Shown piece by piece: positions 29,594-49,039 of a stretch of DNA of 53,915 bases (position 1 is the first letter of the stretch; the number at the start of each line of letters is the position of its first letter). The DNA is taken from positions 1-53,915 of the IMG/VR virus record IMGVR_UViG_3300035702_000343. One strand, written 5' to 3'. The stretch comes from a virus (taxonomy: Duplodnaviria; Caudoviricetes). The translations under genes and the position numbers were made by a program. The notes beneath the pieces were generated by a model. The model was not told the DNA's origin, searched no databases, and saw only the letters and a program-made list of their open reading frames with translations.

Positions 29594-32250
29594 ATGAAAT
29601 TAAATAAAGCAAGTAGCATTCTAAGTGACATAACAGTACACATGAAATACGCACGTTACTTAGATGACAAAAACCGGCGAGAGATATGGGATGAGCTCGT
29701 TGACAGAAACGTGGAAATGCACGTTAAAAAATATCCCAAATTAAAAGAAGAAATAAATGATGTTTACGACAGATTTGTAAGAACAAAGGTGGTCCTCCCC
29801 TCGATGAGATCGATGCAGTTTGGTGGAAAGCCTATCGAAATTAGCCCTAATCGGGTTTACAATTGTGCTTATTTGCCTGCGGATCACATAGATTCTTTTG
29901 CAGAAACTATGTTCCTTTTGCTGGGTGGCACAGGAGTTGGGTACTCTGTACAAAAACACCATGTAGAAAAGCTGCCTAAAATTATTCATCCGGATAGTGA
30001 TAGAACCAGGCGATACTTAATTGGTGATTCAATCGAGGGTTGGGCAGATGCAGTTAAGATCCTATTCAAAGCATACACCGGTATAAACCGAAGTAAGCCT
30101 GTATTTGATTACAGTGATATACGTCCTAAAGGGGCTAGACTAGTTACTTCTGGTGGTAAAGCTCCCGGTCCGGCGCCTTTAAGAGAATGTCTGGTTAAGG
30201 TTGAAAATATCCTTTCCAACAAACCTAACCGTAGTAAGCTTCAACCGATTGAGGTACATGATATCATGTGCCATATAGCTGACGCAGTTCTAGCAGGCGG
30301 TATACGAAGAGCTGCTATGATTTCTCTATTCTCTGCGGACGATGACGAGATGTTATCTGCAAAGAGTGGTAGCTGGTGGGAGAATAACCCACAACGTGGT
30401 AGAGCTAATAACTCCGCAGTGTTGATGAGAGACAGACTGACTAAAGATTACTTTATGTCAATCTGGAAACGAGTAGAAGACAGTGGCTCAGGAGAGCCTG
30501 GAATATACCTTTCCAATCATCGTGATTGGGGAACAAATCCGTTGACCTATGCATAATGCGGATTTAAAACCTTCTCTGATCGACTTGGAAGCCGGCAATA
30601 CGGCGACAGGGGGCAAGCAAGGGTCAGAAGATTCTGTGCAGCCTGAGAGACTGAGCGAGAAGGGCGACTACAGTGTTTATTGGATACACACCAATAAACA
30701 CAAGGATATTTATTGTGAAGGTTATGTTGGCATCACTATAGACACAAAGTCTAGAATGAGATCGCATAAAAAGAACAAGAAAAAATCACCAATTGTTGAC
30801 GCTATAAAATCTTATAGTTGGGAAAACCTAGAGATAGAAATTATAGAAGAAGAGTTGACAATGGAGCGGGCTTTAGAGATAGAGGGGAATTACAGGCCTA
30901 GGTTAAATATAGGCTGGAATCTTCAAAAAGGTGGAGAGCTTGGAGTAACGTCTGACTGGTATAATAACCCAGTAAACAAAGAAGCGCACTCTAAGGCTAC
31001 ATCTATTGGAACTAAAGCTGGCATCCAAGAAAAAGATAGTACAGAGGAAAGATCTAAAAGAGCTAAAAACAGTTGGTTAAAGAATGCCGATAGTTATAAA
31101 GGCAGTTGTAGAGGATCTAAAAATGGTAAAGCAAGATTAAATGAAGAACAAGTATTTGAAATTCGTTTTAAGCTTATACCAGAAGGCCTCAGTAATAAAG
31201 AGATAGCAAAAGACTTTAATGTAAAGCCTTACGTTATCCAATTTATTCGTACTGGCAAAACTTGGAAACATGTCGTATGCGACAGTCCAGCGCACAAGTA
31301 GGTATTTTGCTATAACCTTACAGTGTGACGGTTGTGAGATAGGATTAAGGCCCTATCAATTTTGTAATCTTGTTGAGATGAATGCTAACATTCTCGAGAC
31401 GCAAGAAGAATTAGACGAAGCTGCTAAGGCTGGAGCTTTTATAGCTACGCTGCAGGCAGGGTATACAGACTTCCACTATCTACGTGATGTATGGAAGCGA
31501 ACTACCGAGAAAGACGCATTAATTGGAGTATCTATGACAGGTATCGCTAGTGGTAACGTTATGAGTCTTGACATGGCTCAGACAGCTAAAGCTGTTAAAG
31601 CGACCAATGCTGAGATTGCTGAGATTATTGGTATTAAGAAAGCCGCTCGAACTACATGTGTCAAACCTGCTGGAACAACTAGCCTTGTATTAGGAACTAG
31701 TTCTGGTATTCACGCATGGCACAATGATTACTATGTTCGTAGAATGCGTGTTGGTAAGAATGAAGCTATATATACTTACTTAAGTATTAGACATCCGGAA
31801 CTTATTGAAGACGAGCATTTCAGGCCACATGATACTGCTGTGATTTCTGTACCACAGAAAGCACCTGAAGGCGCTATTCTAAGAACTGAGTCCCCATTAG
31901 AAACCTTGGAAAGAGTTAAAAAGGTTAGCCAGAGCTGGATATCTACTGGATACCGAACAGGGCAAAATGGTCATAATGTTTCCTGTACTATTTCACTGAA
32001 AGATGATCAGTGGAGAGACGTAGGTAACTGGATGTGGAAAAATCGGGAGCATTACAATGGAATTGCTGTGCTTCCTTATGATGGTGGTAATTATAAACAG
32101 GCTCCTTTTGAGGACTGTTCTAAAGAAACTTATGAGGCTATGTTAGAGTCCCTTGATAAAGTTGACCTTACACAGGTAATAGAATCCCAAGATGAGACTG
32201 ATCTTAGTGGAGAGATTGCTTGCGGGGGAGGGGCCTGCGAAGTAGTTTAA
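29594..32250 (+). CDS. nrdJ: Class II (B12-dependent) ribonucleotide reductase; exons 29594-30542 and 31331-32250 (622 aa spliced)
   Basis: LPSMRSMQF, YNCAY, GTGVG, GGIRRAA, GEPG; splicing restores WGTNP-C-CEI; FCNL, TCVKPAGTTS, C-terminal CGGGAC. Confidence 0.92.
30543..31330 (+). mobile_element. Group I intron in nrdJ (788 nt)
   Basis: 5' exon ends in U paired with G in P1 (AAATCCGT/GCGGATTT); intron ends in G; P7 GACTG (30649) / CAGTC (31283); removal restores frame and the NPCxE motif. Confidence 0.9.
30549..31301 (+). CDS. Intron-encoded GIY-YIG homing endonuclease with C-terminal HTH
   Basis: VYWI...GYVG, RMRSH, E, GWN motif spacing; GSKNGKARLNEEQV..IR...SNKEIAKDFNV...TWKHV DNA-binding module. 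Confidence 0.8.
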   Translation: MHNADLKPSLIDLEAGNTATGGKQGSEDSVQPERLSEKGDYSVYWIHTNKHKDIYCEGYVGITIDTKSRMRSHKKNKKKSPIVDAIKSYSWENLEIEIIEEELTMERALEIEGNYRPRLNIGWNLQKGGELGVTSDWYNNPVNKEAHSKATSIGTKAGIQEKDSTEERSKRAKNSWLKNADSYKGSCRGSKNGKARLNEEQVFEIRFKLIPEGLSNKEIAKDFNVKPYVIQFIRTGKTWKHVVCDSPAHK

Positions 32251-33876: not shown

Positions 33877-34727
33877 CAGCATGTATTATCTTTAACCCTG
33901 ACTCAGATGAGTCAAGGTTGCACAGGATAGAAACCGTACTAAGTCTTTTATATTTCAGGGTTGATGCTATTGCATTGGCCCCGGAGTATAAAATTAGAGA
34001 AGACTTTTTAGGTGGTAAAGCTTTTATTGCAAAAGACGAACAACACGCATTAGTGAATTCTGATGTGGTTATTTGCTTAGGAGGTGATGGCACAGTTATC
34101 TATACTGTCCATATGTTAGCAAAATATGATTTGCTGAATAAACCGGTTATATCAATAAATTTGGGTAACGTTGGTTTTATATGTCCATTTTCTTACGAGG
34201 ATGTTCTTAAAGGACTTGATATGGACATGGATATACAAGAGCGTAGCCTTCTTGAATTAAAGACAGGGGCAGCTAGACAACCAACCGCTTTAAATGAAAT
34301 CTATATAGGGAAACCTGATATAGAAACAACTGTTCTGACTTTTAAAATATCTTTTAATGACCAAGTAGCTACATTTAGAGGAGATGGTGTAATACTAGCC
34401 ACATCTACAGGGTCTACTGCATACAATTTTTCTATGGGAGGTCCTATAATTTCCCCAGAAAGAGGAGCTAATCTCGTGTGCATAACTCCTACTGGTTGTA
34501 TAGATGCTAGTGTTAAGCCTATAGTCATGAAATTAGACCCACTGAATTCTTTGACTATAGAAACCTCAGAAGAATCTTGTGTCCAATGTGACTCAAGAAC
34601 TATAGGATATTCAAAAAACCACGAGGTGGAAGCCTCACTTGAGAGTCTCTTTCTTAAAACTCCTAAGAGTTTTAATTATTTTGACCTGCTTGAAAAAAAG
34701 TTAGGTTGGGGTAGGCTTTCTAAGTAA
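33873..34727 (+). CDS. nadK: NAD(+) kinase
   Basis: LGGDGT, INLGNVGF, ALNE, GDGVILATSTGSTAYNFSMGGPII, KKLGW. Confidence 0.92.
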   Translation: MTACIIFNPDSDESRLHRIETVLSLLYFRVDAIALAPEYKIREDFLGGKAFIAKDEQHALVNSDVVICLGGDGTVIYTVHMLAKYDLLNKPVISINLGNVGFICPFSYEDVLKGLDMDMDIQERSLLELKTGAARQPTALNEIYIGKPDIETTVLTFKISFNDQVATFRGDGVILATSTGSTAYNFSMGGPIISPERGANLVCITPTGCIDASVKPIVMKLDPLNSLTIETSEESCVQCDSRTIGYSKNHEVEASLESLFLKTPKSFNYFDLLEKKLGWGRLSK

Positions 34728-34798
34728 CTTTACTGTACCAATTAAAATCTTTTTTGCATTTTTACTTTTAATATGGTAACTTATTTAAAAGTAATCAA

Positions 34799-34871
34799 GG
34801 GCCTATAACTCAGATGGCAGAGTACCAGCCTTTTAAGTTGGGAGTCGCAGGTTCGATCCCTGCTGGGCCCA
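34799..34871 (+). tRNA. tRNA-Lys(UUU), CCA not encoded
   Basis: Acceptor GGGCCTA/TGGGCCC, D arm ACTC/GAGT, anticodon stem CCAGC/GTTGG with loop CTTTTAA, T arm GCAGG-TTCGATC-CCTGC; TTGCAT-N17-TAACTT promoter upstream. Confidence 0.92.
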
Positions 34872-34962
34872 CACCCGTTAGGGGTTATGTCTTCTGCCGT
34901 GGCACTTAATGAGCGTTACGACGTCATTAACTTGCCAAGCTTATAAAAATTTTATACCTTAT

Positions 34963-34978
34963 TGGTATAAGAATAGTG
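34963..34978 (+). promoter_or_regulatory. GGTATAAGAA motif copy 5, upstream of tmRNA
   Basis: TGGTATAAGAATAGTG. Confidence 0.7.
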
Positions 34979-35398
34979 CTGAGGAACACATACAGCATTT
35001 TTAATCAAGCAAATGATAGAAAACAGTGTTCCGATGACGCAACTTGGGGGTGTTCTGGATTCGACTGCTCACAAAAAGTTAAAACTACAATCTGGCTCGT
35101 AGACTACTACCAAACAGTTAAATTGAACTGACAAAAATCAATCACCTAAAATAGCTGGCTTTATTGGCTCAGCTAAGACTCAACCAGCAATAGCTGCGTA
35201 AAGTTCGTTCTACCTGATGATAATAGGGATAGTAAACTTAGGTTTACAGAGCGTCATAATTATCAGAACAGGTGTGGTGACCTTAAACACTCTCAGATAG
35301 TATAGCTTACCGACTGCCACTGAGTAAACAAAAGGCTAAAATAGCAAAATGATTGTACAATAGTTTTAATGGATGTGCTGTAGGACCGGAGTTCGACT

Positions 35399-36135
35399 CA
35401 AAGGGTCACTATATAGGTAACTATATAGATAAAAATTGGATGAATTGCTGGAAGGCTAAGTATTTATATAAGTATATGCTAATCAGCAGCGAAGTCGTGA
35501 GTACACTCACGAAACGTTCAGAGACTACTGGAGAACTTTAGAGTTCTTAATTACCAGCTAGAGCGTCCAACTCCTCGCTAAGAGGATGATGATATAGTCC
35601 GTAATCTCTCGGAAACGGGAGGCAAATCAGAAAGTTTACCACGATCAGCTAATCTATGATGATTAGGGCACAAAACTGTTAAGTTTTTTAGTGAGTTATT
35701 ACCTCCTTCTTTTCTAGGAGTTATATGATGGATATCACATTGATCTTCATTCCAACCGCATATAAAACATGACAGGTTTTTGTCTGTGCTAATTTTCAAG
35801 GCTTTATAAACCTTTCGCTGAATACGTGGACGCTGATTTGATAATTTATTATTTCTGTAATGCCTTGATTTGCATTTACCAGAACAGAACTTTGCATTGT
35901 GTGCTTTTGTAGTAAATTTATTTTTACAAACTACACAATCCTTTATTACTGTTTTTCTGCCGTCATTTCTATTTTTTGCCGCGCAGCTTCTGGAACAAAA
36001 TTTAGCATTACCTCTATTAAGCTCCTTTATAGGAGCCAAAAAATTACTGCCACACCAATCACAAATTGTTGTTTTATGTTTCATAAGATAATATATAAAC
36101 GGTGGGCATGAGAAACAAATAAATTATAACATTAG
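35399..36135 (+). mobile_element. Group I intron (737 nt) in the tmRNA T-loop
   Basis: P1 GACT|C-AAA-GGGTC with U.G at the splice site; terminal G; core AATTGCTGGAA, AATCAGCAG, P7 GACTA (35523) / TAGTC (35595). Confidence 0.9.
35578..36084 (-). CDS. HNH homing endonuclease with N-terminal Zn-finger repeats, antisense inside the tmRNA intron
   Basis: Two CxxC...KFCSxxC repeats; CFICG...DIHHITPRKEGGNNSLKNLTVLCPNHH; TTGTTT-N17-TATATT promoter at 36090-36118. Confidence 0.88.
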   Translation of the reverse strand: MKHKTTICDWCGSNFLAPIKELNRGNAKFCSRSCAAKNRNDGRKTVIKDCVVCKNKFTTKAHNAKFCSGKCKSRHYRNNKLSNQRPRIQRKVYKALKISTDKNLSCFICGWNEDQCDIHHITPRKEGGNNSLKNLTVLCPNHHRLADRGKLSDLPPVSERLRTISSSS

Positions 36136-36189
36136 CTCCGCACCTCCACCACACGGTTAAGTGTAACCCAAGTTGTAGATTGCATGTTT

Positions 36190-36223
36190 AAAGGGAGCCT
36201 CTTTATTGAGGTTCCCTTTTTTT
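36190..36223 (+). terminator. Intrinsic terminator after tmRNA
   Basis: AAAGGGAGCCTC-loop-GAGGTTCCCTTT plus T-run. Confidence 0.85.
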
Positions 36224-36244
36224 ATTTAACTTTAATTTTATCCC

Positions 36245-36517
36245 ATGATTAAAATTTTAATATTTGCTGCTCTTGTAATAGGAGCTGCCTGGCTTATTTT
36301 TATAAAGATACCCGAGATTGTGGGTTCTGGAAAAAAGAAATCAAGTTCTGAGAATTCTTCTGATGAAGGTTTATTAAATAAGCTTACAAAAGAAGAGCAA
36401 AGAGCTCAAGCCGCTAGACAAGCCTTACTCGACGAGGCAGAACAAAAAGACGCTGAAGCTACCAAAACACAGGCTGAAGCAGACACGGTGCGTAAAGCAC
36501 TACAATCGTCACAATAA
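36245..36517 (+). CDS. Small membrane-anchored coiled-coil protein
   Basis: N-terminal hydrophobic helix followed by a charged helix. Confidence 0.65.
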   Translation: MIKILIFAALVIGAAWLIFIKIPEIVGSGKKKSSSENSSDEGLLNKLTKEEQRAQAARQALLDEAEQKDAEATKTQAEADTVRKALQSSQ

Positions 36518-36901: not shown

Positions 36902-37603
36902 TTAAAGCCCAGATGCATCCAAAGGTTTGACCCTGGAAGCTGATAGGGTTACATTCTCTGCAAGAACAGTAGCGTTAGCGCTAATCCCAAAAGAATGGGA
37001 TTGAATATAACACTTCTCTAAATAAACACCTCCATAAGGCTCTCCATCCATATCAAAAAGTACAAATCCTAAACCTAACGGTCTATTGAATATTGCAGAG
37101 CCTAAGTTGCCCCAGAATTTTCCTGGGTTAGCATTTTGACTCTCCGATTGAGTATCGATAATACCTGAATCCGGGTATGGCATGGTTGGATTATTTAAAG
37201 AGTGGCTTGAACCGCTTCCAAAATCTGCTGATGAGGGAACAGTCGGTGTCCCACCATCGTTTGACTCTCTTTCGTACATTGCATAAAAAAGAGACGGGCC
37301 ATCGAATAAAACTCTACTTAAAGAAGCTCTTACTCTTACCCTAGCTGGAATGAAGAAAGGTGTTCTACCTCCTATCTCAAATATTTCATTTAATTGTTTA
37401 TTTTGCTGTAGCTGTGCACTCTGTACTAACCCTATTGGGTATAAAGAGGCCGCAGACCCGGATAAAACCGGAGGTCCACTAACAATAACAGCACTCTCGC
37501 CAGAGAGATACGCACCATTCAGGGCACCTTCGTGCTCGTCGGGCTGTACATTCTGTTTATTTGGAAAGTTAGCTTTCCAGTTTGATAGATTTTCTAGTGA
37601 CAT
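36902..37603 (-). CDS. Tail tube protein
   Basis: Follows sheath; PIGLVQSAQLQQNKQLNEIFEIGG and YLEKCYIQSHSFGISANATVLAENV beta pattern; AGGAG SD. Confidence 0.7.
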   Translation of the reverse strand: MSLENLSNWKANFPNKQNVQPDEHEGALNGAYLSGESAVIVSGPPVLSGSAASLYPIGLVQSAQLQQNKQLNEIFEIGGRTPFFIPARVRVRASLSRVLFDGPSLFYAMYERESNDGGTPTVPSSADFGSGSSHSLNNPTMPYPDSGIIDTQSESQNANPGKFWGNLGSAIFNRPLGLGFVLFDMDGEPYGGVYLEKCYIQSHSFGISANATVLAENVTLSASRVKPLDASGL

Positions 37604-37620
37604 TTATTTTCTCCTAAGTA

Positions 37621-39225
37621 TTAAAATTCTAGAGTTATTTTTATGTAATTAACTGGATAAAGCGGTGTTATCGCCAGATCCACTTTTATAGTGTCTGGTT
37701 GAACTTCATCTTGGTATACATTTAAAACGTCAACAGCTCTTACATAGCCTAGATCTACAAGTTCGTTTCCTGCACTTACTATCGCAGCCCTAAGCTGTTT
37801 TAAAAACCCATCTGATATTACAAATTTCCCAATTAAAGGTGACACTAGGTCCCTTATATATTTGGAAGCGTAATCAATTTGAGTAGTAATAGATAACTCT
37901 CTAGTTTGAATTGTTGTTGCGTTTGTAGACAACTGGTGTCTATTTATAATAGCTCCTACTCCCCTCTCTTCTAAAATCCAGGTACCGCCTTCTGCGATAG
38001 TATTTAGCTGTGATTTATTAAAGTGGTCATTACTCTTATAAAGCATAGAGAATCCATTTATTCCGCTGTTTGTTAATGGCTCTTCTGGCCTCTTACCAGC
38101 TACAGCACCTACAAGGGCTGCACCAAAATAGTATCCGGGTACCGGATAATAAACTGTTACGAAATCAATATCATTTGCCTTTAAAGTAGTAATTGCTGAA
38201 GAAGTTATCTCACTAAAAGCTCTAAACTTGGTTGATCCTGCAGTAACATTTGTTACGAACTTAGGCTTTAAACTAAAAGTTGATCCAAAAACGGCTTGTA
38301 TGAAAGAGTCTGAAAGAGTGCTTACATGAGCTCTTGTTTCAACATACCCCGCGTCTGGGTGTATAGAAAAGAATCTCTTTTCGCCTGACGCTGCACTGAC
38401 ATTTTGGATAGCTTGTGCTACCTCTTGTTTTTCAGAATTAGTAGCCGGTGTAGTTTCTTCTGGGGAGTAATCTACTCTTTTGGAAACAAAGGCGATACGT
38501 TCTTTCCCCTCAGCGGGTACTGACATCGCATTACAATGCGTTGCAAACTTATCCGCCTCAGATCCTACTCTAGTTAAAGGTGCTATTGCATAAACTTTTT
38601 CTTTATTTTCAAGAGCTGTTACCGCGTTTGAAAAGCTAGATGAATCACCGCCTGTACCTGGATCTACTCCAAGAATATTTGTGCTTACTCCTCCATTTGA
38701 CATGGCCAGAGAAGCTCCATAAGCTAAAGGGTTCCAAGGAACCGGTTGTCCAACATAGTCTATAATGTCTTGAGCCTCAATTACTTTCTGATAGTTATTA
38801 TTTAAATCTGTTCTTTTTGCTAAAAATCCAACTCTTACATTGGCTTTATCAGCATTGTCTACATCGAACCCAGAAATATCTGCTGTAATTGTGATATTCT
38901 CTCCGGATACGGTAAAATCTGTGTCCTTCACTAAGTGTTTAACTGAACCGATAGTGCCGTTTGGCCCCTCAGTCCTAATGAGGTCTACAATAACTGTGTC
39001 CTCAATATAATCTGTATGTGAAGAAAATGCACTTCCAGAAACTACGAGCTCACTTCCATCATACGATGTCGTATATATAGAACTATTCTCATTATCGTCT
39101 CTCTCAGGATCTTGCCAGTAATAGCCGGGGCCTACAACACAAGATTCTAAGGTAGGATCCGGTAATGGGAAACTAGCTGTCTTCTGGACCTGTCTTACTG
39201 TAGCAGCAGGTTTTGTATATGCCAT
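37621..39225 (-). CDS. Contractile tail sheath protein
   Basis: MAYTKP N-terminus, PEEPLTNSGING, C-terminal QPDTIKVDLAITPLYPVNYIKITLEF. Confidence 0.85.
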   Translation of the reverse strand: MAYTKPAATVRQVQKTASFPLPDPTLESCVVGPGYYWQDPERDDNENSSIYTTSYDGSELVVSGSAFSSHTDYIEDTVIVDLIRTEGPNGTIGSVKHLVKDTDFTVSGENITITADISGFDVDNADKANVRVGFLAKRTDLNNNYQKVIEAQDIIDYVGQPVPWNPLAYGASLAMSNGGVSTNILGVDPGTGGDSSSFSNAVTALENKEKVYAIAPLTRVGSEADKFATHCNAMSVPAEGKERIAFVSKRVDYSPEETTPATNSEKQEVAQAIQNVSAASGEKRFFSIHPDAGYVETRAHVSTLSDSFIQAVFGSTFSLKPKFVTNVTAGSTKFRAFSEITSSAITTLKANDIDFVTVYYPVPGYYFGAALVGAVAGKRPEEPLTNSGINGFSMLYKSNDHFNKSQLNTIAEGGTWILEERGVGAIINRHQLSTNATTIQTRELSITTQIDYASKYIRDLVSPLIGKFVISDGFLKQLRAAIVSAGNELVDLGYVRAVDVLNVYQDEVQPDTIKVDLAITPLYPVNYIKITLEF

Positions 39226-39242
39226 TTTTTATCTCCTTATTT

Positions 39243-40013
39243 TTATTTTATTTCATTTTGTTTCTTGCGCTGCGTTGCTTTCGCACCTCGAGATAGCGCT
39301 ACGGCTAGCCCTACCGGGGCCGACACGGTAAACAAGGCTGTATCAACAGCTGCTTCTTGCAGTCGTTTTGACTGCGGTTTGTTTTTATTGCTAAGAGCAT
39401 AAGAAGCTGCACCAATACTGGCCCCACTTCCTCCTAACGCTATCGAAACGGGCGTCAGTCCTTTACGTTTTCTAACGATAACTGAGTCCCGGTTTGTGGT
39501 GCTAACCACTTTACGATCTTTTAGAAATTTGGACTTTGTCTTTAAATAAGACTCACCATTTTTCTTGTACACTACTGGATTGAAAACCTCTTTATGTAAA
39601 TCTCCTTTAAGCTGTTCTTTGGTTAATTTACCGAAGTTTTTTCCAACCTGTGTAGTACCTCCGATCATGCCTTTCCCTTTAACGTCTTTTGTGACTTTTA
39701 AAAGAGCGTCCGCTGTATTTCCTAGAGAAGTTCTAACTGCTGTACCTGCAGAGGTATCATGCTGCATCTTTGGTATTTTAATATTCTTTGGTATGTCTTT
39801 CGACACATTCTTGACAGGGTCTTTGAACCGTGCCATATATTTTCCGGCATCCCTGTAATCGACTTTTGATTTTTCTCAAACAGTACTACCGTACTCTTTC
39901 ATATTTTTTAAGATAGGTGACTTCGATTTAACCGCGTGGTTAAAAGCCTTTCCTGGGCTTTTTGCGCCCCTTATATAATTTAGAGATTTAAATAATCCCT
40001 TTACTTTACTCAT
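39243..40013 (-). CDS. Basic hypothetical virion protein, 256 aa (TGA=Trp at 39876)
   Basis: Frame extends to ATG at 40013 adjacent to the upstream stop; Gly-rich hydrophobic C-terminal helices. Confidence 0.65.
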
Positions 40014-40883
40014 TTAATTTTCGTTAATTATTTCTGTTCCAGTATTGTCTGCTGTAAATCTTTCAAAAAGATTATAATATCCATATATTTTTCCATTATC
40101 CGGGACTGTATATAATCTATTACTTCCGGTGACAGTAATCAAGTTTATATCGCTTTTTTCTTCCAGTGTTACGGCGTCTATGTAGTCTATGGTCAGATTT
40201 AGTTGACTACCTGGGTCATTTACCAATTCGATTTGGACACCACTTGGAGTAACATGGAAATCTATTCCTTCATACAACTCATCCTCTCCGTTGTAGACTC
40301 TACAGTTATACATACGTTCTCCTAACCTCACTGTTTCTTGTCTTTCCACATTAAAAGAGATGTCTACGTTTGCTACTTCTATACCGCCCGCTGATAATTT
40401 TAAAGTTTGTTCTCTTCCCAAGGTTAGGCCGTTCATGGTATGTATACCTTTGTCTTGTTCCTTAAACCACTCTCTATGCGCCCACAGCTGTATAAAAATA
40501 TCATTTGCTATTTCATCAGCAATGTAGTGCCTTTTTGCCATGACTCTTAGATTTATATTAGATCCCCAGGTTTGGGTCAATTTGTAGTTATTTTGTCTGG
40601 AGCCGCCGGATTTAGAATAAAATCTCCTCTCTAGTCCTGAGTCTCTGGAATCATTGTTTGGTAATGCCTCGGATCGATACCTACCAGTTAGCCCTATAGG
40701 GCCACGATCTATTATTACCGTTGGTCTCATAGCTGCGATCCCTAATTCAGTTGCATACTTATCGGCTACAATAATCTTTGTGTTTTTAGGATTAATGTCC
40801 CATTTGTATTTCGTGTGTCCACTAAAATAAGTTTGTATAAAAGATAAAAATACTTTTTTAATCCTCAACGACGGTGTAATCAC
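40014..40883 (-). CDS. Putative tail-completion/neck protein
   Basis: Position between head-completion genes and sheath. Confidence 0.5.
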   Translation of the reverse strand: MITPSLRIKKVFLSFIQTYFSGHTKYKWDINPKNTKIIVADKYATELGIAAMRPTVIIDRGPIGLTGRYRSEALPNNDSRDSGLERRFYSKSGGSRQNNYKLTQTWGSNINLRVMAKRHYIADEIANDIFIQLWAHREWFKEQDKGIHTMNGLTLGREQTLKLSAGGIEVANVDISFNVERQETVRLGERMYNCRVYNGEDELYEGIDFHVTPSGVQIELVNDPGSQLNLTIDYIDAVTLEEKSDINLITVTGSNRLYTVPDNGKIYGYYNLFERFTADNTGTEIINEN

Positions 40884-41010
40884 GTGCTACTTCTGCTCCT
40901 TCTTTTTTAATCTTATCTTCTGCTTTTTCTTGTTCTACTTCAAGAGCTATTTGTGACAATAAATCTTTGTCCCTTACCTCATTTCTCTCTCTTTCTACTT
41001 TTTTAATCAT
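40858..41010 (-). CDS. Small charged hypothetical protein, 50 aa (absent from track)
   Basis: ATG in TAATG overlap; MIKKVEREEIEVRDKDLLSQ...; fills the gap. Confidence 0.55.
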   Translation of the reverse strand: MIKKVERERNEVRDKDLLSQIALEVEQEKAEDKIKKEGAEVARDYTVVED

Positions 41011-41807
41011 TACCTATAATCCTCGATTGAGTATTCATAAATTTCATCGTCTATGTGTATGACACTTAATTGTGCTTGCTGTTCTATGACTACTCCTAAT
41101 AGTTCCAGGGTTCTTACTCTTTGTATAAAAAATCTTTTATCTGTTTTTGCGTCAACTACAACATCACCTGCTTCTAGTGGGGGACGGTTCAAAGTAGTAA
41201 ACATGACATCACTAGGATAAAATTCTCCTCATAACCCTATGTCTTTTACCTGGGCTGCTGGGGTTACCATTCCTCTAACTTTTTGCGGTTTAAAATACCC
41301 CTCTCTTCAACCGGTTCCCCAACAGTTACAATCTGAACATACGTCTGTAGTCTGTTTAAATAATACTGGGTCCCAGGAAACCTCGCAACGAGTTCCCCAT
41401 GTCCTTCTTTTTAAAAGGAAAAAATCTCTACCGCTCTTTTTTCTAAGAACCAGATCTTTCTGCCTTCATATTTTTAACCACTTTAAATTAGGTCTTTCGT
41501 TATTAAGGTAGTAATAATCTGTTATGGAGTTTTCCTGGGTATCAGTGTTTTCTATCTTTAGTTTGTAGTACCACTGTCTTGTCCCGTGTGCTAATCCGCT
41601 GGGAGTAAAGTCTTCGTAGACATATGTGTTTGCAGATATGCCGGAATCTATAAGGTTATATTCGGATAAGTTGTTTGAAGGGGCCTGTGAGACATAAATA
41701 GATACTTCATAATCATTTAAGTCTTCCACAGTATCTTTAAAGGCTCACTCTAGGTCTAGTGAGTTTGGCTTGTTTCTAAATACGGAGAGTTTTTCTAAAG
41801 CTATCAT
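41010..41807 (-). CDS. Putative head-closure/neck protein with Zn-binding segment, 265 aa (TGA=Trp at 41745, 41466, 41307, 41229)
   Basis: Read-through yields GTRC...CSDCNCWGTG[W]REGY...PPLEAGDVVVD; single frame. Confidence 0.7.
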
Positions 41808-41812
41808 AAGGA

Positions 41813-42295
41813 TTAACTAAGGCTATCACTGTATTCGCTATAAGCCCCACCATATCCTCCATCAATATTTTTGGCTCTTTTAAAGGCTTGAGCGGCTCTC
41901 ATAAAACGGGAAATAAGCATATTAAAAAACACGGTGTATCTACCATACTTATCTTGGTCTTTTACAGTTATTCCACCAGAGTCATTGTATGATAAAACAT
42001 TCCTTGCGCTTAGTATCCCTTTGGATATTAAAACATTTAGAAAAGCTCCGTCCCTTAAAATAGTTCACGGGATTTCTGATATTTTTTGAAAATGTAAAGA
42101 GGTAGGCTCAATTTCGTAGTTCATCTGTTCAAACACATCTTGCAATGCATAATAAAGTTCAATATCTGTATTTTCTTGGGCCTCTGTAAGATCATTCAAT
42201 TGTTCGGTATCCCCTAGAAACTTTCTTAATCTATCAACCCTGCCCTGCATATCTGCGGGTACTGAGGAGGCACTTAATTCGGCGTTCGTTAACAT
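41813..42295 (-). CDS. Putative head-tail adaptor, 160 aa (TGA=Trp at 42065)
   Basis: LRKFLGD..QLNDL...IP[W]TIL...RNVLSYNDSGG; located after MCP; promoter TTGACT-N17-TATATT at 42316-42344. Confidence 0.65.
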
Positions 42296-42323
42296 AATGT
42301 ATTGGTTTTTTATTTAATATACT

Positions 42324-42917
42324 CTATATCTTTAGATTAGTCAACTCTGTATAGAGTCCAAAACCTTCAGTAAGGATAGTTTGTGGACGTAACTTCTGTT
42401 TTAAATAAATTTCAGCCGTATCAGGGTTAAAAAGATATCCATGTTCCCAATCTGAAATAAGTAAAAATTCGATCAGTAGATCCTTGTTAGAGTATTGGTT
42501 GTGAAGTGCTTGCTTTATCTCTTCGAATCTTCTAAATCTGTAGGGTGATGTTGCTGCATATATCTGTTCCATTTTTTGATGATTACAAATGTAAAGAATA
42601 ACATCTAATGCGTTATTTCCATATAGATCAAACTCGTCTAAGAATAAAAAATGGGGTCTCTTACTTGTTAGTTTTCTATCTAGTTGTGGCTCTGGATAGT
42701 TTATATCAGATATCTGTATGTAAGTGAATTTATTACGAAGGGGTATGAGGTCAGGGTTGTTTGCCAAGAACTCTTTGTCTCTTTGAATTGATATAAACAC
42801 AAATTTATCTGGGCTTTTCCCGGGATTATGTGCTAAGGACTCTAAAAGTTTGGAAACTAGTAGCTTGGTTTTTCCTGAATCTCTGTTACCTAGGTACAAA
42901 TTTAAAATATCTGTCAT
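42324..42917 (-). CDS. P-loop NTPase-like protein (GNRDSGKT, FLDEFD)
   Basis: Walker A/B-like motifs; own TTGCGA-N17-TATCTT promoter 6 nt before ATG. Confidence 0.6.
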   Translation of the reverse strand: MTDILNLYLGNRDSGKTKLLVSKLLESLAHNPGKSPDKFVFISIQRDKEFLANNPDLIPLRNKFTYIQISDINYPEPQLDRKLTSKRPHFLFLDEFDLYGNNALDVILYICNHQKMEQIYAATSPYRFRRFEEIKQALHNQYSNKDLLIEFLLISDWEHGYLFNPDTAEIYLKQKLRPQTILTEGFGLYTELTNLKI

Positions 42918-42932
42918 GTACCAAAGATAAAT

Positions 42933-42965
42933 AAAAAAAGGCAGACTCGCAATGAGACTGCCTTT
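42933..42965 (-). terminator. Terminator after major capsid gene
   Basis: AAAGGCAG..CTC/GAG..CTGCCTTT stem with A-run on the + strand. Confidence 0.8.
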
Positions 42966-42987
42966 AAATATCTACTAGTTAGTAGGA

Positions 42988-43890
42988 TTAACTTAAAGTT
43001 AAGCTAGCTACTGACTTAGTGTTTGCGATAATCATACCGACTGACTCGTAAGCCGACCAGCTGATTATGTTTCTTTTCTTGTCGATGTCGAATTTAGTAT
43101 CATTCATGATACAGAACTCACCCATGAATTCCGGTGAAGTGAACGCATAGATTTTGTTATTTAACAAGTCTGTCTTGTTAGATACAATAATCTTACGTCC
43201 GAACAGTGTAGGGTACTTGTACCCGTTTACTGCAATCTCGCCTTTCATACCACCGTCACCAAAGGTTCCGTTAGTATTGTTGTCGATGATTAATCGGTTG
43301 AACATGAGTTGATCCATTAGCAAGTACTCAGCACGTAGCTGGTTTGCTTCAATCTTTGCGAAAAGATTACGGATCTCTGTTTCTGGAATGGCTTCCGAGT
43401 TATAACTAGCATTAACGTTATTACCTTCTACAGTAATCGCTGCGTCAACGTGCTTTAAGAAAGCAACGTCCTCTTGTTTCTGGATGTCCAGAACAGAGTT
43501 ACGCTCAATTACCTGGGTAATAGGCATTCTGTAAGCAAGAAGTTCTTGCTCTGCTTTTTGGAATAGTTCGGAACTGATTTCGTGAAATTTCAGCTCTACT
43601 CTTTTTCCTTCTACGTAGTTAGTTGTTGGCTCACCACGGAAGTTAATGAACATTGCCTTAGACTCTGGTTCTAATTCAATGATTTTAACTAGGCCGTCAT
43701 GGTTTACAGAAACCTGTAAATCTGCCTTAGTAACGTATTGAGGTGGTAAAATCTTTCTTGCGAAAGAAACCTCACGTAGTTTTTCACGGACAAATGCTGC
43801 AGATTCTGCTGCAACCTTTTCCTTTCCTTCTGGTGAATCTAAATTGTGAACGAATAAATCGTTAAATTGTCGTGCGTTGTGTGTATCCAT
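42988..43890 (-). CDS. Major capsid protein (HK97-fold), 300 aa
   Basis: Position after protease/scaffold genes; REKLREVSFARKILPP, DIQKQEDVAFL, SAYESVGMIIAN; strongly biased codon use; SD; terminator follows. Confidence 0.75.
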   Translation of the reverse strand: MDTHNARQFNDLFVHNLDSPEGKEKVAAESAAFVREKLREVSFARKILPPQYVTKADLQVSVNHDGLVKIIELEPESKAMFINFRGEPTTNYVEGKRVELKFHEISSELFQKAEQELLAYRMPITQVIERNSVLDIQKQEDVAFLKHVDAAITVEGNNVNASYNSEAIPETEIRNLFAKIEANQLRAEYLLMDQLMFNRLIIDNNTNGTFGDGGMKGEIAVNGYKYPTLFGRKIIVSNKTDLLNNKIYAFTSPEFMGEFCIMNDTKFDIDKKRNIISWSAYESVGMIIANTKSVASLTLS

Positions 43891-43912
43891 TTTTCCTTAT
43901 TTTAACCTCCTA

Positions 43913-44356
43913 TTATAGCGTTACGAATTCAATTACAGTACTATCTGCTTGTAAGTGACGCTCTGTATGAGGCGCTTTGGTGCACACGGCTACCGCGGTG
44001 TTGTCACCTTTTGTTGCTGTTTTCAGCTTTCCGTCGGCATCCACTTCTAGTGGGTCACCTGCGGAAGGTGTTCCGGTGTATTGGTCTGTTGTAGCGCGGT
44101 ATTTTCCAACTAACACAGTAAGTCTGCGTGAGCCAGGGATCGCTGTTACATCTGGAGACCATCCGGCTGTTCCATCTCTATTTGACTCAGTGAAAACCTG
44201 CATTGCATGAATATCACCCGCCGTTGGAAGCGCTAGTAAGTCGCCTTCTTTAACAACCCAAGTACCTGTTACGGCAACGCCTGAAGCTACTAGGTTATCT
44301 GGAGCTTCCACATCGAAACGATTTATCTTATTTAAATCGGTTTTTAAACGAAGCAT
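43913..44356 (-). CDS. Putative capsid decoration/cement protein
   Basis: Immediately upstream of MCP; AGDPLEVDADGKL beta-tulip-like pattern. Confidence 0.55.
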   Translation of the reverse strand: MLRLKTDLNKINRFDVEAPDNLVASGVAVTGTWVVKEGDLLALPTAGDIHAMQVFTESNRDGTAGWSPDVTAIPGSRRLTVLVGKYRATTDQYTGTPSAGDPLEVDADGKLKTATKGDNTAVAVCTKAPHTERHLQADSTVIEFVTL

Positions 44357-44385
44357 TTATTTATTTCTCCTTATTTTATTTAATT

Positions 44386-44745
44386 TTAGTAATCTTCTAA
44401 AAGGCTATGAAAAAATTTATCTTCCGCTGTTGCAGGGGTAGCAAGTTCATCACTTAGCTCTCCTAGCGAGCTGCCTAATTTCATGGAGTTAGACCCCATT
44501 AACTCAGCAGCCTTTTCGAAAGTTTTTAATTCATCAGCCGATTTGTCTGAAAATTCATTAAACTTGTCTTCAAACTCTTCCACCGGGAATTGTCCCAGCT
44601 TTAAAAGCCTCAGCGCCAGACCTGCAGATGACTTAAGATGAGCAACTTTTTCTTGTAAACCAGAAACCTGGTTTTCAAGTTCATCGCGTTCATTGCTTAA
44701 AGTCTCTAAGGCATTTGCTGCTTTTTTAAATAGTTCTTTTGACAT
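44386..44745 (-). CDS. Coiled-coil head assembly/scaffold-like protein
   Basis: Helical, acidic, K-x-A motifs. Confidence 0.55.
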   Translation of the reverse strand: MSKELFKKAANALETLSNERDELENQVSGLQEKVAHLKSSAGLALRLLKLGQFPVEEFEDKFNEFSDKSADELKTFEKAAELMGSNSMKLGSSLGELSDELATPATAEDKFFHSLLEDY

Positions 44746-44759
44746 AGCTTAATTAGTTG

Positions 44760-45086
44760 TTAGTTAGCGCTGTCCTCTTCCAAGGCTGCTTTAAAACCGG
44801 CATACATAACTTGGCCAGCTTCATATAATTCAGCTACTTTTTCTCTTTCAATAGCTTCCTCGATTTCGGCTTCGATCTTAGCTTCCGCTAATTTCATTAC
44901 CTCATCTTCGGTATAATTTCCCGCTCCTTTCTCTTCTGCTAGTTGGCCTTCGGCCCACTCTGCATACTTCTGAAGCTCTTCAACCTGATCGTCAACTTCT
45001 TCTTGACTTTCAGTAGAAGCACTTTTTTCTACTTCTTCAGCAGCGGCTTCTTTTTGCATATTCTGGAATGTTTCCCAAATACTCAT
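44760..45086 (-). CDS. Acidic head assembly/scaffold-like protein
   Basis: Glu/Ala-rich, multiple K-x-A motifs. Confidence 0.55.
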   Translation of the reverse strand: MSIWETFQNMQKEAAAEEVEKSASTESQEEVDDQVEELQKYAEWAEGQLAEEKGAGNYTEDEVMKLAEAKIEAEIEEAIEREKVAELYEAGQVMYAGFKAALEEDSAN

Positions 45087-45091
45087 ATTAT

Positions 45092-45694
45092 TTAGTTCTC
45101 CTCTTTATCATTAAAGATTTTATTGTGAAATTTTGTTAAGAATTCCGGTGAGACTACAGAAGCTTTTTTAGTTCTTTCGTCATAGCCATCATGGCCTACG
45201 GAATTTTGATTTTTAGCCTCTGCGGCTACAGTCACAGGAGATTCCTGTGGTAAAGAAACACTCGAAATGGTTGGAACAACCATATCCATATTAGAAGCAG
45301 GCATGATGCCTAGAGCAACAAGCTCTGAGTATAAACTGTATGCTGCAACTTTTCCGAAGTCTGCTGCCATTTTGGCCCAGGTTTCTTCGTCAATCATTGA
45401 AGCCGTATTTTTTTCTTCAGCTGTTTTTTCAGATGTTACTTCTTCCTCAGTTTCTTTAGTACTTTCTTCTGCTTCTGCTTCTTTAGTAGTTTCTTCTTCA
45501 GAAGAATCTTCGCCTTCTACTTCTGCGTCAGCAGAAGCTTCTTTGCTAGTTTCTTCTTCAGTAGAATCTTCTTCGGTTGCAGAGGCCTCTTTAGTAGTCT
45601 CTTCTTTGTCAACGATGTTCTTTACAAAAGTATCTTCGGCTGTTTTTTCAGCTTCAGTTAGTTCGTCAAGAAGATTTTTTACATTTAGTCCCAT
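45092..45694 (-). CDS. Acidic scaffold-like protein with EET(T/S)KEA repeats
   Basis: Low-complexity Glu-rich repeats; strong SD AAGGAGGT. Confidence 0.6.
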   Translation of the reverse strand: MGLNVKNLLDELTEAEKTAEDTFVKNIVDKEETTKEASATEEDSTEEETSKEASADAEVEGEDSSEEETTKEAEAEESTKETEEEVTSEKTAEEKNTASMIDEETWAKMAADFGKVAAYSLYSELVALGIMPASNMDMVVPTISSVSLPQESPVTVAAEAKNQNSVGHDGYDERTKKASVVSPEFLTKFHNKIFNDKEEN

Positions 45695-45703
45695 TATACC
45701 TCC

Positions 45704-47533
45704 TTAGGAAGTTGTTATTTCTTTAAAAATTAAATTGATTGTTTCCGGTTGAAGCCCGGCTGTTTTCTTTTTACCAAAAAAGCCGGACGGCTCTAGTGGA
45801 TTCTTTTTCTTTACGCTTGATGTGACTTTACCTACTGATTTGCCCATCCCTTTAAACATTAGTCCTGCTCCTGTTGAAGCTGTAAGACCTGCAATGAGGG
45901 GGTGTTTTCTAATGAAATCTTCAGTATTAGATAAGCCATATCCTTTTCGTGCTTTAAGTTCGTTTTTGGCTGATGCGTAATATGTCAAAGGAACTCCTAC
46001 TAACATTGACCCCATCATAGGTCCAATTTTAGCAGCTTGTTTATTTAGCGGCTGATCTTCCAAAATACGTTCTTGCATTTTTGTTACTCCAACCGCTAAC
46101 CCTGCTCCTATACCAGGAGCAATTCAAGGGTGTTTACTAACCATTTTCATGAATTCTGAAGAATTAGCAGACTTACCGAACAATCTGGCATAACCTGCAT
46201 ATAAGGCTCCAAGAGTTGTAAAGGCAGCAACTGGATTGTGTACTCCACTTGATGCCGGTTCTGGTTCTTCGTCCATTAAAAGCTTTTTAATAAAAGATCT
46301 TTCGACCTCTTTGTTATTTGGCATAATGGAAACCAGAGGATCGCTCAAAGATGCGCTCTTCTCTAAAATTCTATTAATAATAAATGGTTTTGTCAAGGAA
46401 TATCTTGAAATATTCCCAAGTATTTCGTTTGCGACCTTCTCGTTCATGTAATTTATACCTACATCATCGATTTCTTCAGCCGTATCCTTTATTGTAAAAT
46501 ATTGTCCTTGCTTTTCTAACTGATCGGCTAATTGTTTTTCTCCGATGCAGTATAAAGCTAATTTTTGAAAATCTTCTTTGTGTGGTAGAATACGTAGTCC
46601 CATAAAAGTACTAAGTACTTCATTTAAAGGGTACTGGGAAAGTTTCTCTATCTCTTCTTGTTCAAGGCGGGGTGTGGTGTTTTTTATAAGTGCAGAGGGG
46701 TCTTCTTCTATATTCTCCATCTGTGCGGGAAGATTTTTTGTTATTTCTCCTCCTTTACTAAAAGCCGACATCTTATTTCCTTCTTCTCATGACGCTGCTT
46801 TATTCATACCTATGTCCGAGATAGCCTCTTTAGTTTCTAATGTATCTGAGGCCAATTTAAGTTGATTACCTTCTGGATCAAATGTTGCCATAAATGCTGC
46901 AACCGGGTCTGCTGGAATAACTACTATAGAAAGATCAAAAAATCTTGGTCGGGTATTTATAGCACAAACTCTCCTACCGTCCGGCAGGATCTGGCCCATC
47001 TGGGTCAATAAGTATTCACTGTAATCTGATCTAGTTTTAGCCTTCTTGCCAGTGATGGAGCAAACATCAAAAGGAACTTTACACCCCATAGATACTTTAG
47101 GTAGCATACCGTTGCTAATACCTTTTCTTATATTAACTACGTCTGGATGAGCCTTCTCTAGTCTTACAACAACTTCCACTCTTTTCATTCGCGGGTTGTA
47201 GTGTGAAAAAAGGACTTTACCCATAGATTTTTTAGGGTCTTTGTTTACATGGTTCTTGTAAACGTGCCCATACTGTTCAAAAGTTTTATGATATTTTTTG
47301 AGAGCATCTTCAGGAAAGAAATCACCGTTACGATTAGGTCCATAATATTCCCCTGCTGTAAGAGCGTTAACAAGAGCATAAAGATAGCCTCGTTCTCTCT
47401 TTAGTTTAGATAAAAATTCCGTAATCGGACCATCATAGGATGCCGTCTTTTCCATAACTTCACCCTCCTCAACAATACTGAAGATAGGGTAGTCATAGTC
47501 GCCTGAAATGTATTCAGCTCTTTTTTCTATCAT
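45704..47533 (-). CDS. Prohead protease domain fused to a long C-terminal region, 609 aa (TGA=Trp at 46787, 46124)
   Basis: NRNGDFFP, HVYKNHVNKDP, VSMGC, FFDLSIVVIPADP assemblin/HK97-protease-like motifs; three track ORFs are in one frame. Confidence 0.7.
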
Positions 47534-47534
47534 A

Positions 47535-48065
47535 TTACATGAACAGGGTTGAACCGGCTAGTAATCCTGCAATACCGGGATCTTTTGTTTCTCTATTGTT
47601 TTGAGCGTCTCCCTCAATCTTGTTAAGAGTAGAGTATGTGTCAAGTGGTGGTCCTCCAAAGGAGTCAACACTTTTAGCTTGGATATTCTGTGATATAAAG
47701 GATCCAGCAGCTACTGGGTCCTTGGCTAAGTGAGGTGCATTGTGGTAAAGTGTGTCCCATAAACGTGCAACTTCTTCAGGTGACTCATTTAATAGTCGTG
47801 GATTAGATTCCATCATTTTTTTGTAGTACGATGGCTTCATCATTTTTGAACCTAGTCTTTCGCCAGCTTCTATTAATTTTTTAACAAATTGGTTTATTAG
47901 TAAGGCAGCTCCTAAAACACCTACAACCTTCATAGCGTTTTCATACCCCGCAAAATCCATTTTGCGTGCTTTGTCTCCCGCCAATTGTAATGTTTTGACA
48001 TTAGCGTGCTTATTGATATAAGCTTTGGCTGCTGCCCTTTTGATCATCTCTTGTCGTTTACTCAT
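47535..48065 (-). CDS. Hypothetical head-module protein
   Basis: ORF track; tightly packed in operon. Confidence 0.6.
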   Translation of the reverse strand: MSKRQEMIKRAAAKAYINKHANVKTLQLAGDKARKMDFAGYENAMKVVGVLGAALLINQFVKKLIEAGERLGSKMMKPSYYKKMMESNPRLLNESPEEVARLWDTLYHNAPHLAKDPVAAGSFISQNIQAKSVDSFGGPPLDTYSTLNKIEGDAQNNRETKDPGIAGLLAGSTLFM

Positions 48066-48066
48066 T

Positions 48067-49002
48067 TTAAATATCTTTCCTCTTAGCGTTTTTTTGTATT
48101 AAGTTGTTGAGCTTTTCCCCATCTAGTTCGGTATACTGTGCTAATTTTTCTTTACCTGCTAAAAACTCCATGATGTCGGTTAGGCCTGTTGAGGTCAACC
48201 CTACTTTAGCCCGTCTACCTACCTTCTCTATCGGATCGTCGCTTTCTTCTAAAGTATCTAAAGCAGCTTGTAAGTCACCTGCCACTTTTAAAAGACTGCT
48301 TATTTCCCGATTAGCTTTCTTGGCTTGCAGAAATAATTCATTTTCCGGGTTTATCCTTTTACCTGCTAGCTTACTAAAATCTTTTTCTTCTAAAGTGATG
48401 CCATCTTTTTTCAAGTCTCTTTGTAGGCTATCTATAATATAGTCTCCAAATTCCCCAGCCTGTTTGATGAGATAAGTTAAGGACTCGGTGGACACGCCTG
48501 ACAGGGCCGCTTGCTTTACTTCGGAGTACATTGGGGGTAAGGTATTGTTCACTCGAATGCCTCCCTCTAAGCAGCGATTTGAGAGTAAGTCTACAGATTC
48601 TCTTCGAGTCTGTGCTTCTTTAAACATTTTAGCGTAATCTGCGCGCTTCTCAATAGGTTCTCGTTCTCCAAAAAACTCTTCCAACTTAGCTGTTTTATAA
48701 AAAGACTTTTGGGGCGGTTTCTCGTAATCTGAGATTAGAGTTCCTCGCTTTTCTGAGGTATTTGCCACTTTTTCAGGATCGGCTACATTGAATTCAATGT
48801 AACTATCCTCCCCGGAAGCCTGTTTAATGAGACCTAGGTGGGTTTTAACGTTTGCAATTTCTGCTACTCTTGAGATTTGGTTTGGATTTAGCCCATAAGT
48901 TGAAGCAACTTTATCAAGCCCTTCAGTTAGATCCTTACCATTAGTCAGGTAATCCTGAGCTATTTTTTCTCCGATTTCTTTTAATTCGTTTGACTGCATC
49001 AT
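48067..49002 (-). CDS. Hypothetical head-module protein rich in K-x-A motifs
   Basis: ORF track; TTGACA-N17-TATATT promoter at 49008-49036. Confidence 0.65.
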   Translation of the reverse strand: MMQSNELKEIGEKIAQDYLTNGKDLTEGLDKVASTYGLNPNQISRVAEIANVKTHLGLIKQASGEDSYIEFNVADPEKVANTSEKRGTLISDYEKPPQKSFYKTAKLEEFFGEREPIEKRADYAKMFKEAQTRRESVDLLSNRCLEGGIRVNNTLPPMYSEVKQAALSGVSTESLTYLIKQAGEFGDYIIDSLQRDLKKDGITLEEKDFSKLAGKRINPENELFLQAKKANREISSLLKVAGDLQAALDTLEESDDPIEKVGRRAKVGLTSTGLTDIMEFLAGKEKLAQYTELDGEKLNNLIQKNAKRKDI

Positions 49003-49039
49003 GTCTTAATATATTCCTCAGTATTATTACTGTCAAGTT

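Follow-up and report, generated by a model that had tools for sequence, protein, structure and literature searches.

Genes for transfer-messenger RNA (tmRNA) with a group I intron in the T-loop were reportedly described in bacteria by Williams in 2002, and I-HmuI, I-BasI and I-TwoI are HNH nicking endonucleases of phage group I introns. The element reported here is located in a 53,915-base-pair (bp) IMG/VR virus record (IMGVR_UViG_3300035702_000343, positions 1 to 53,915, classed as linear and about 27% complete), the whole of which will be denoted the window. With good probability it is a one-piece tmRNA gene of a large lake-water tailed phage, interrupted after T-loop nucleotide 7 by a mobile group I intron that carries an antisense HNH homing endonuclease gene (HEG).

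For bacteria, the text of a survey of tmRNA genes (PMC11915505) gives 883 unique intron-form sequences from 21 phyla, each carrying its intron in the T-loop, compared to which the single precedent named in the initial annotation, Clostridium botulinum, was too narrow. Standard, intron and permuted are the three gene forms used in that text. Insertion is mainly at T-loop subsite 7, further at subsites 2, 3 and 8, the last only in Saprospiraceae. LAGLIDADG homology revealed HEGs in 36 of the 883 sequences; of the 23 founding sequences that bear one, 4 have it after P9 and 19 in the P7.1 region. The survey's text makes no mention of phage intron forms, of HNH genes, of antisense open reading frames (ORFs) or of introns in a permuted gene; its inputs included RefSeq viruses, and some of the sequences treated here may already be listed in its supplements. 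As far as that text describes the bacterial intron forms, the window locus resembles them in its T-loop site, in the rule of a U before the intron (-1 U) and a G as its last base (omega G) and in the restoration of the T arm by splicing; HEGs after P9 and the use of subsite 8 are likewise described there. It differs from them in its phage host gene and in an HNH nuclease encoded on the opposite strand and overprinting the ribozyme core, and the phage intron family to which it belongs uses subsites 7 and 8 in both standard and permuted genes.

For I-DirII of the Didymium iridis ribosomal DNA (rDNA) group I intron, an antisense HEG with a promoter of its own is described (PMC3073962). Both HEGs are antisense to a non-coding host RNA gene. 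In contrast to the phage element, I-DirII, according to that paper, resides in eukaryotic nuclear rDNA, is a His-Cys box enzyme and is expressed from an RNA polymerase II promoter, with a spliceosomal intron in its mRNA; its enzyme family and host are unrelated to the phage HNH element. A further HNH endonuclease of a phage group I intron is I-PfoP3I (PMC3428280). With I-HmuI, I-BasI, I-TwoI and I-PfoP3I the window element shares the IA-type ribozyme, the HNH enzyme and the proposed spread by homing in co-infection, whereas those introns interrupt protein-coding host genes and have a sense-strand ORF looped out of the ribozyme. In the literature covered, with subscription journals and supplements outside its scope, no phage tmRNA intron, no HNH gene in a tmRNA intron and, for group I introns of bacteria or phages, no antisense HEG was described. 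T-loop tmRNA introns are already known in bacteria; the phage setting, the HNH type, the antisense overprinting and the insertion into permuted genes appear undescribed. T-loop invasion, catalogued mainly in bacteria, thereby extends to phage-encoded tmRNAs, and the placement of a HEG opposite the ribozyme strand and overlapping the core is a rare layout, for which a description was found only in the eukaryotic rDNA intron.

tmRNA exons and group I intron of the window

At curated thresholds Rfam finds two RNAs in the whole window, a tRNA-Lys and a group I intron. The intron match (RF00028, plus strand, 35383-35622) covers the full model (positions 1-253) and reaches 88.4 bits, the gathering score being 50, in agreement with the group I assignment of the initial annotation. 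It begins directly after a partial match to the tmRNA model RF00023, obtained with relaxed thresholds applied to 34700-36400. This match (35054-35400; 36 bits, E 2.1e-12) spans the D-loop-like UCUGGAUUCGAC to GGACCGGAGUUCGACUC, with the last 14 model positions unmatched there, and it remains under the gathering score of 47 because these 14 positions, corresponding to exon 2, sit 737 nucleotides (nt) away. The proposed tmRNA identity is thus supported by the E-value of exon 1 but not by a score at the curated level.

Exon 1 (35046-35398, plus strand) comprises the 5′ acceptor strand GGGGGUG, the tag frame, the body, the 5′ strand of the T stem and the 7-nt T-loop UUCGACU, and ends with CGGAG-TTCGACT at 35398. 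Exon 2 (36136-36151, plus strand) consists of the T-stem 3′ strand CUCCG, the acceptor 3′ strand CACCUCC and ACCA. Both exons align with intron-less phage tmRNAs, exon 2 with their 3′ ends; the first 22 nt of exon 1 are identical to six unrelated intron-less IMG/VR phage tmRNAs (103-137 bits), one of which (L008) has the same T-loop, TTCGACT. Joining of 35398 to 36136, i.e. removal of 35399-36135, rebuilds the T arm CGGAG-UUCGACU-CUCCG with its 5-bp stem as well as a 7-bp acceptor stem GGGGGUG/CACCUCC with a G3·U pair and the 3′ end ACCA; the rebuilt T arm and acceptor end are those given in the initial annotation. The tRNA-like domain of acceptor stem, T arm and CCA is complete only after this joining, and both acceptor-stem strands are already present in the unspliced precursor. 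The G3·U acceptor pair marks alanine identity, and alanyl-tRNA synthetase (AlaRS) needs mainly an acceptor stem with G3·U. The proposal of the initial annotation that aminoacylation must await splicing is conjectural.

The probable tag reading frame (35130-35201, plus strand, frame 0 translation) reads (A)DKNQSPKIAGFIGSAKTQPAIAA followed by a stop. Its end, KIAGFIGSAKTQPAIAA and stop, i.e. AIAA-stop, forms a hydrophobic, Ala-rich C-terminus, and GAC would be the resume codon. The frame aligns with GKNKVAGFIGQPKKMKAAA and stop, the ARAGORN tag of the spliced tmRNA of a second lake phage (L012, see below), the core AGFIG being common to both. A scan with a degenerate tag motif returned one chance match (L019) and the L012 contig again. 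Standard tmRNA finders do miss the gene, as had been expected: ARAGORN calls no tmRNA in the unspliced window or in four unspliced relatives, and lowered thresholds (-ps60, -ps50) give spurious minus-strand permuted calls only.

The intron itself (35399-36135, plus strand, 737 nt) is inserted at T-loop subsite 8, after loop nucleotide 7. Its ribozyme core (35383-35622) contains P1 to P9 including a P7.1 hairpin in the Rfam alignment. P1 is formed by 35395-35399 and 35403-35407 (RNAalifold) and P2 by 35409-35416 and 35421-35428 (repeat search), while P9, assigned by eye, pairs 35606-35611 with 35616-35621 and is capped by a GAAA loop. For 10 family members RNAalifold recovers P1, P3, P4, P5, P6 and P7.1, with two-sided compensatory changes at 18 pairs in P1, P3, P4, P6 and P7.1. 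The -1 base U35398 forms a wobble pair with G35404 in P1 and the last intron base is G36135, so the group I splice-site rules invoked earlier for this locus are obeyed. A candidate 5′ strand of P9.0, UAAU in J7/9 (35602-35605, plus strand, by eye), would pair with AUUA at 36131-36134. Comparable pairs are seen by eye in each lineage, UAAU/AUUA in the window, AGAUUC/GAAUCU in the cr1 type and UAAA(U)/(A)UUUA in the cr4 type, and such a pairing before the omega G would explain the use of a splice site about 510 nt beyond P9.

The precursor would accordingly self-splice by G addition at U35398·G35404 of P1, with omega G36135 brought in over about 510 nt by the short P9.0 pairing, and the restored T arm would allow the tmRNA to work with SmpB, EF-Tu and AlaRS of the host. 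In four DNA runs no joint skipping the intron was seen, the uncovered parts of the stretch not being interpreted. A long-range stem closing the 510-nt ORF region was sought as well and yielded only A/T-rich matches of chance quality.

The 3′ tail of the intron (36085-36135, plus strand) extends from the HNH start codon to the omega G, includes the P9.0 3′ strand, contains a block conserved between lineages and on the minus strand forms the upstream region of the HNH gene. Its GGUGGG (36101-36106) is complementary to UCCACC of exon 2 (36145-36150), and in tails of the crAss type it is GUGGAG (L009 3097-3102) that complements the exon 2 acceptor 3′ strand. The pairing is part of the minimum-free-energy fold in four of six tails, with z-scores of -0.3 to -2.5, which is weak. 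Judged by the complementarity, it could be a 3′-splice-site hairpin or a homing-site-like operator upstream of the HNH gene. Another complementarity (90%) connects the 5′ half of the exon 1 T stem and loop (35388-35397) with the P3′/P8 junction (35565-35574); RNAalifold shows some two-sided changes there, and the pairing breaks in the cr4 type.

The HNH gene on the opposite strand

The HNH homing endonuclease gene (35578-36084, minus strand, 168 residues) lies wholly between the splice sites. Its product matches the Pfam HNH family (PF01844, 30.9 bits versus a cut-off of 21.4, E 2.9e-7) and phrog_1271 (E 3e-23), with two N-terminal CxxC...CxxxC motifs and a C-terminal HNH domain. In an alignment of four HNH proteins (A1) Asp117, His119, His120, Asn134, Asn141 and His143 are invariant, as are the Cys and His columns. 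Rfam, Pfam and the joining of the exons thus agree on the nested anatomy first proposed for the window, a tmRNA gene whose T-loop holds a group I intron that in turn bears an HNH gene, antisense and overlapping the 3′ part of the core.

The last 45 nt of the ORF (15 codons) fall inside the Rfam intron match. By eye, the stop codon is positioned in the P8 loop, and these codons run antisense to the P8 3′ strand, J8/7, P7′, J7/9 and P9. The conserved residues at the C-terminus of the protein, (L)RTISS or WTISS, result from reading the invariant ribozyme motif around GAUAUAGUCC in antisense. According to lineage the ORF starts at intron position 180, 187 or 144, and its stop codon takes different positions in the core. 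Because of the latter, the overlap is best read, on sequence grounds, as incidental read-through into the ribozyme and neither as a designed antisense module nor as a functional part of the protein.

A regulatory role of the overlap, as proposed in the initial annotation, would be the alternative: the convergent HNH mRNA, complementary to P8-P7′-P9 and to the 3′ half of the intron, would block splicing and tmRNA maturation. At least 45 nt of this mRNA are perfectly complementary to the catalytic core, the overlap is kept in all 18 family members, and convergent transcription is unavoidable in such a layout. Group I folding and splicing, however, are co-transcriptional and fast, and the variation of overlap length and stop position between lineages fits incidental read-through better, so antisense regulation is regarded as improbable.

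In the preferred reading, that of a mobile intron whose HEG merely reads into the core, the HNH protein would be made from a separate minus-strand transcript. Placement of the nuclease gene on the opposite strand would uncouple its expression from an abundant, tightly folded, untranslated RNA and would keep ribosomes off the ribozyme. The promoter assigned to the gene in the initial annotation, TTGTTT-N17-TATATT (36113-36118 and 36090-36095, minus strand), is indeed found 5 nt before the ATG, but with 8 of 12 consensus matches it is below the threshold of the promoter scan and not listed by it, and the scan itself does not exceed chance (4 sites versus 4.8 ± 2.3 in shuffles). By eye, TGTTATAAT (36123-36131, minus strand) is a candidate extended -10 element. 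In the window, transcription of the HNH gene by read-through from the minus-strand structural block is possible. At the crAss loci all neighbouring genes are on the tmRNA strand, so the promoter of the HNH gene must lie there in the intron tail or in exon 2.

Recent transfer of the intron and its relatives in crAss-like phages

A search of IMG/VR with the HNH protein retrieved the second lake phage, L012. In blastn it shares only 35383-36149 with the window, at 99.5% identity. The intron with its HNH gene is identical at 735 of 737 bases (99.7%) and has the same ends; one difference leads to P140L in the HNH protein and the other is found in the 3′ tail (C36116T, within the proposed -35 element). 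The identity ends within about 16 nt of the splice sites, no similarity is detected by blastn in 2 kilobases (kb) on each side, and the exon 1 sequences are merely 58% identical (238 of 411 aligned columns). Exon 1 of L012 alone exceeds the RF00023 threshold with 52.6 bits, and after splicing in silico ARAGORN calls a standard tmRNA with the tag GKNKVAGFIGQPKKMKAAA. Between the T stems, CGGGG/CCCCG in L012 and CGGAG/CUCCG in the window, a compensatory change is seen. In run X5 a 1503-nt contig, covered more deeply, has 35383-36149 as its exact match; beyond it, on both sides, the contig does not resemble the window, and its loose ends are the L012 flanks. Since the intron is nearly identical while the host gene is strongly divergent, intron and HNH gene moved recently between two phages with divergent tmRNA genes, and the pair is a clear-cut example from nature of homing that took place very recently between divergent targets. 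The HNH enzyme would nick or cut the intron-free T-arm DNA of the tmRNA gene of a co-infecting phage, and repair would copy the intron in. Targeting of the highly conserved T-arm and acceptor DNA would explain the entry into very different tmRNA genes. As a tool, the enzyme is a candidate nickase, site-specific for a strongly conserved sequence of an RNA gene.

The element is not unique to the window but one member of a phage family. The intron core matches crAss-like phages at 72-82% identity. In the GenBank genomes cr1_1 (L009, 2360-3380), cr55_1 (L011, 2340-3350) and cr4_1 (L010, 2440-3480), all Suoliviridae, an Rfam intron of 59-75 bits is followed by a minus-strand gene of 165-169 residues, labelled HNH endonuclease in cr1_1 and cr55_1 and hypothetical protein in cr4_1. 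This gene overlaps the 3′ end of the core, and its product is 45% (cr1_1) and 48% (cr4_1) identical to the window protein. The exons are those of a circularly permuted tmRNA gene, in which the T arm and the 3′ acceptor strand precede the 5′ acceptor strand (GGGGCUG or GGGGCAU, with G3·U), located about 100 nt downstream. ARAGORN recognizes the permuted tmRNA in all three genomes once the intron is removed and in none of them before. Just upstream of the crAss tmRNA loci, RAGATH-22 and RAGATH-9 motifs score above their gathering thresholds (L009 1545-1745, L011 1520-1720, L010 992-1153).

Alignment A1 retrieves 37 IMG/VR loci with an HNH relative. An nhmmer profile of five cores matches in 14 of them, with the core invariably opposite in strand to the HNH gene and directly adjoining its 3′ end; these are all the loci whose HNH match has at least 43% identity, starts at or before query residue 8 and reaches at least residue 153, and no core was matched by nhmmer in the other 23, which have weaker or partial HNH matches. 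Once these 14 are spliced in silico under fixed rules (a 7-nt loop, a complementary stem, -1 U and omega G), ARAGORN recognizes a tmRNA in every one, 13 permuted and one standard. The insertion is at subsite 7 in ten loci and at subsite 8 in four, and the six different T stems are all Watson-Crick complementary after joining. The HNH ORF, of 165-174 residues, is intact in all 18 copies (15 unique introns). The antisense layout is thus conserved across the phage family in both one-piece and permuted tmRNA genes, and one intron family enters the two gene forms at two neighbouring subsites. Among 185,579 species genomes, four loci with HNH relatives were found, one of them full-length; the scan depends on two peptide patterns and is no proof of absence from bacteria. 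The full-length case (L057, MSGT01000071.1, 100,100 bp, labelled as a Sphaerochaeta metagenome-assembled genome) encodes an HNH relative of 48% identity with an opposite-strand RF00028 match of 75 bits and probably stems from a crAss-like phage whose genome was binned into that bacterial assembly.

Cores related to that of the window are also present in psbA of Synechococcus phage S-SRM01, nrdA of Pseudoalteromonas phage J2-1 and rIIA of cr116_1, where the endonuclease gene is on the sense strand or missing. In the 735-kb phage LR756501 (L017) an RF00028 match of 96 bits (1969-2200) directly follows a partial tmRNA match (1628-1971, 21 bits); by eye, the candidate split gene (1610-2240) has its exon 2, CCCTG-CGGGTCC-A, near 2212-2228, about 10 nt past the end of the core. 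The arrangement points to a huge-phage tmRNA with a short T-loop intron that lacks an ORF. Together with the lack of a stop codon in the HNH ORF before it enters the ribozyme, these relatives speak for an origin in which a free-standing HNH gene landed in or beside an ORF-less tmRNA intron, and in which the enzyme may target ORF-less alleles or a neighbouring site. Against it, intron and HNH gene moved as a unit between the lake phages, 99.7% identical over 737 nt with an identity that ends within about 16 nt of the splice sites, and none of the 14 loci is ORF-less, though loci found via the HNH protein make this a biased search. Such a collaborative history is therefore considered possible but on the whole doubtful.

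Intron-free alleles do exist among the crAss relatives but were not found for the window phage. The genomes cr50_1, cr10_1 and cr52_1 have a permuted tmRNA annotated in GenBank ('transfer-messenger RNA, SsrA') and no intron, and ARAGORN detects those of cr50_1 and cr10_1. The T arm of cr50_1 is uninterrupted (GGACGAGGGTTCGATTCCCTCC), and the tag of cr10_1, GNNFVTDYTQLAVA, is identical to that of the intron-bearing L022, L023 and L035. The T arms of the three tmRNAs match the exon context of the cr1-type introns, of which they are intron-free alleles; unlike the window gene, they are in two pieces. The intron is hence polymorphic for presence and absence in crAss relatives.

Several results weigh against the interpretation of the window locus as a split tmRNA gene with a mobile intron and an antisense HEG. 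The tmRNA match stays below its curated threshold (36 versus 47 bits), ARAGORN makes no plus-strand call in five in-silico splice variants of the window, lowered thresholds included, no convincing HNH promoter emerged from the promoter scan, and SmpB (PF01668) was not found in the 54-kb fragment of a record about 27% complete. With P1 of only 4-5 bp, P10 of at most 2 bp (by eye) and P9.0 of 4 bp, all A-U, the choice of the 3′ splice site over 510 nt rests on weak pairings. Scans with 19-mers for an intron-free allele of the window phage's own tmRNA found none, with no match in viral contigs and three in metagenome contigs, two by chance in protein genes and one to the same intron-bearing sequence. 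No run listed for the stretch is on record as RNA.

The ARAGORN failure on the spliced window, attributed here to the program's limits in handling this tag and resume codon, could also be read together with the weak P1, P10 and P9.0 pairings and with P140L of L012, which affects an otherwise invariant Pro of the HNH motif region, as decay: the intron would no longer splice, and the tmRNA would be a disrupted pseudogene kept by hitch-hiking. This is very unlikely in view of a core of 88 bits with all of P1 to P9 matched, an ORF preserved intact in all 18 copies, T and acceptor stems that pair perfectly, with a compensatory T-stem change between the two lake phages, and a tag frame that is open and ends with AIAA-stop.

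A bolder form of the antisense idea, rather unlikely as well, would be a phage-specific lineage of tmRNA-homing introns whose nuclease is obligately antisense, with 45-110 bp shared with the core and convergent transcripts controlling each other. If so, infection would have two alternative states, one with the nuclease expressed and one with the tmRNA matured, the tail block mimicking the exon 2 acceptor strand would be an operator or a 3′-splice-site hairpin, and the family in abundant human-gut crAss-like phages would represent an overlooked class of phage tmRNA genes. Independently of such control there is an annotation gap: because ARAGORN and the Rfam thresholds miss intron-split phage tmRNA genes, those of cr1_1, cr55_1 and cr4_1, of 13 permuted-form IMG/VR contigs (no taxonomic class assigned) and of the 735-kb phage are unannotated.

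Genomic setting and neighbouring genes

The DNA runs containing the stretch are labelled as lake-water metagenome. Proteins encoded in the window include a tail sheath (phrog_2839) and a major head protein as well as a family-A-type DNA polymerase, a helicase and a ribonucleotide reductase, and from these genes the window is identified as a fragment of a large tailed phage. A search for close relatives of this phage via the tail sheath protein found none.

A tRNA-Lys (UUU) gene (34799-34872, plus strand, ARAGORN; RF00005 64.8 bits at 34799-34871) is located 173 nt upstream of the tmRNA start and probably belongs to the same plus-strand RNA gene block. A tRNA-Lys (UUU) adjoins the tmRNA also in cr1_1 (L009 3377-3447) and cr55_1 (L011 3350-3420), where it is downstream of the coding piece, whereas in the lake phage it is upstream of the tmRNA. 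An intrinsic-terminator-like hairpin of 12 pairs, six of them G-C, followed by a T run, is found at 36190-36219 (plus strand), 39 nt past the tmRNA 3′ end, and the structural genes further downstream (36902-53306) are on the minus strand.

In the region 29594-32250, a class II (B12-type) ribonucleotide reductase is distributed over two ORFs, 29594-30556 and 31270-32250, which match positions 32-371 and 390-696 of the phrog_367 profile, respectively. Between them, and overlapping both, lies an ORF for a 250-residue GIY-YIG endonuclease (30549-31301); Rfam gives no intron match between the two pieces. By its gene order the split reductase resembles the genes-in-pieces ribonucleotide reductases made by homing endonuclease insertion.

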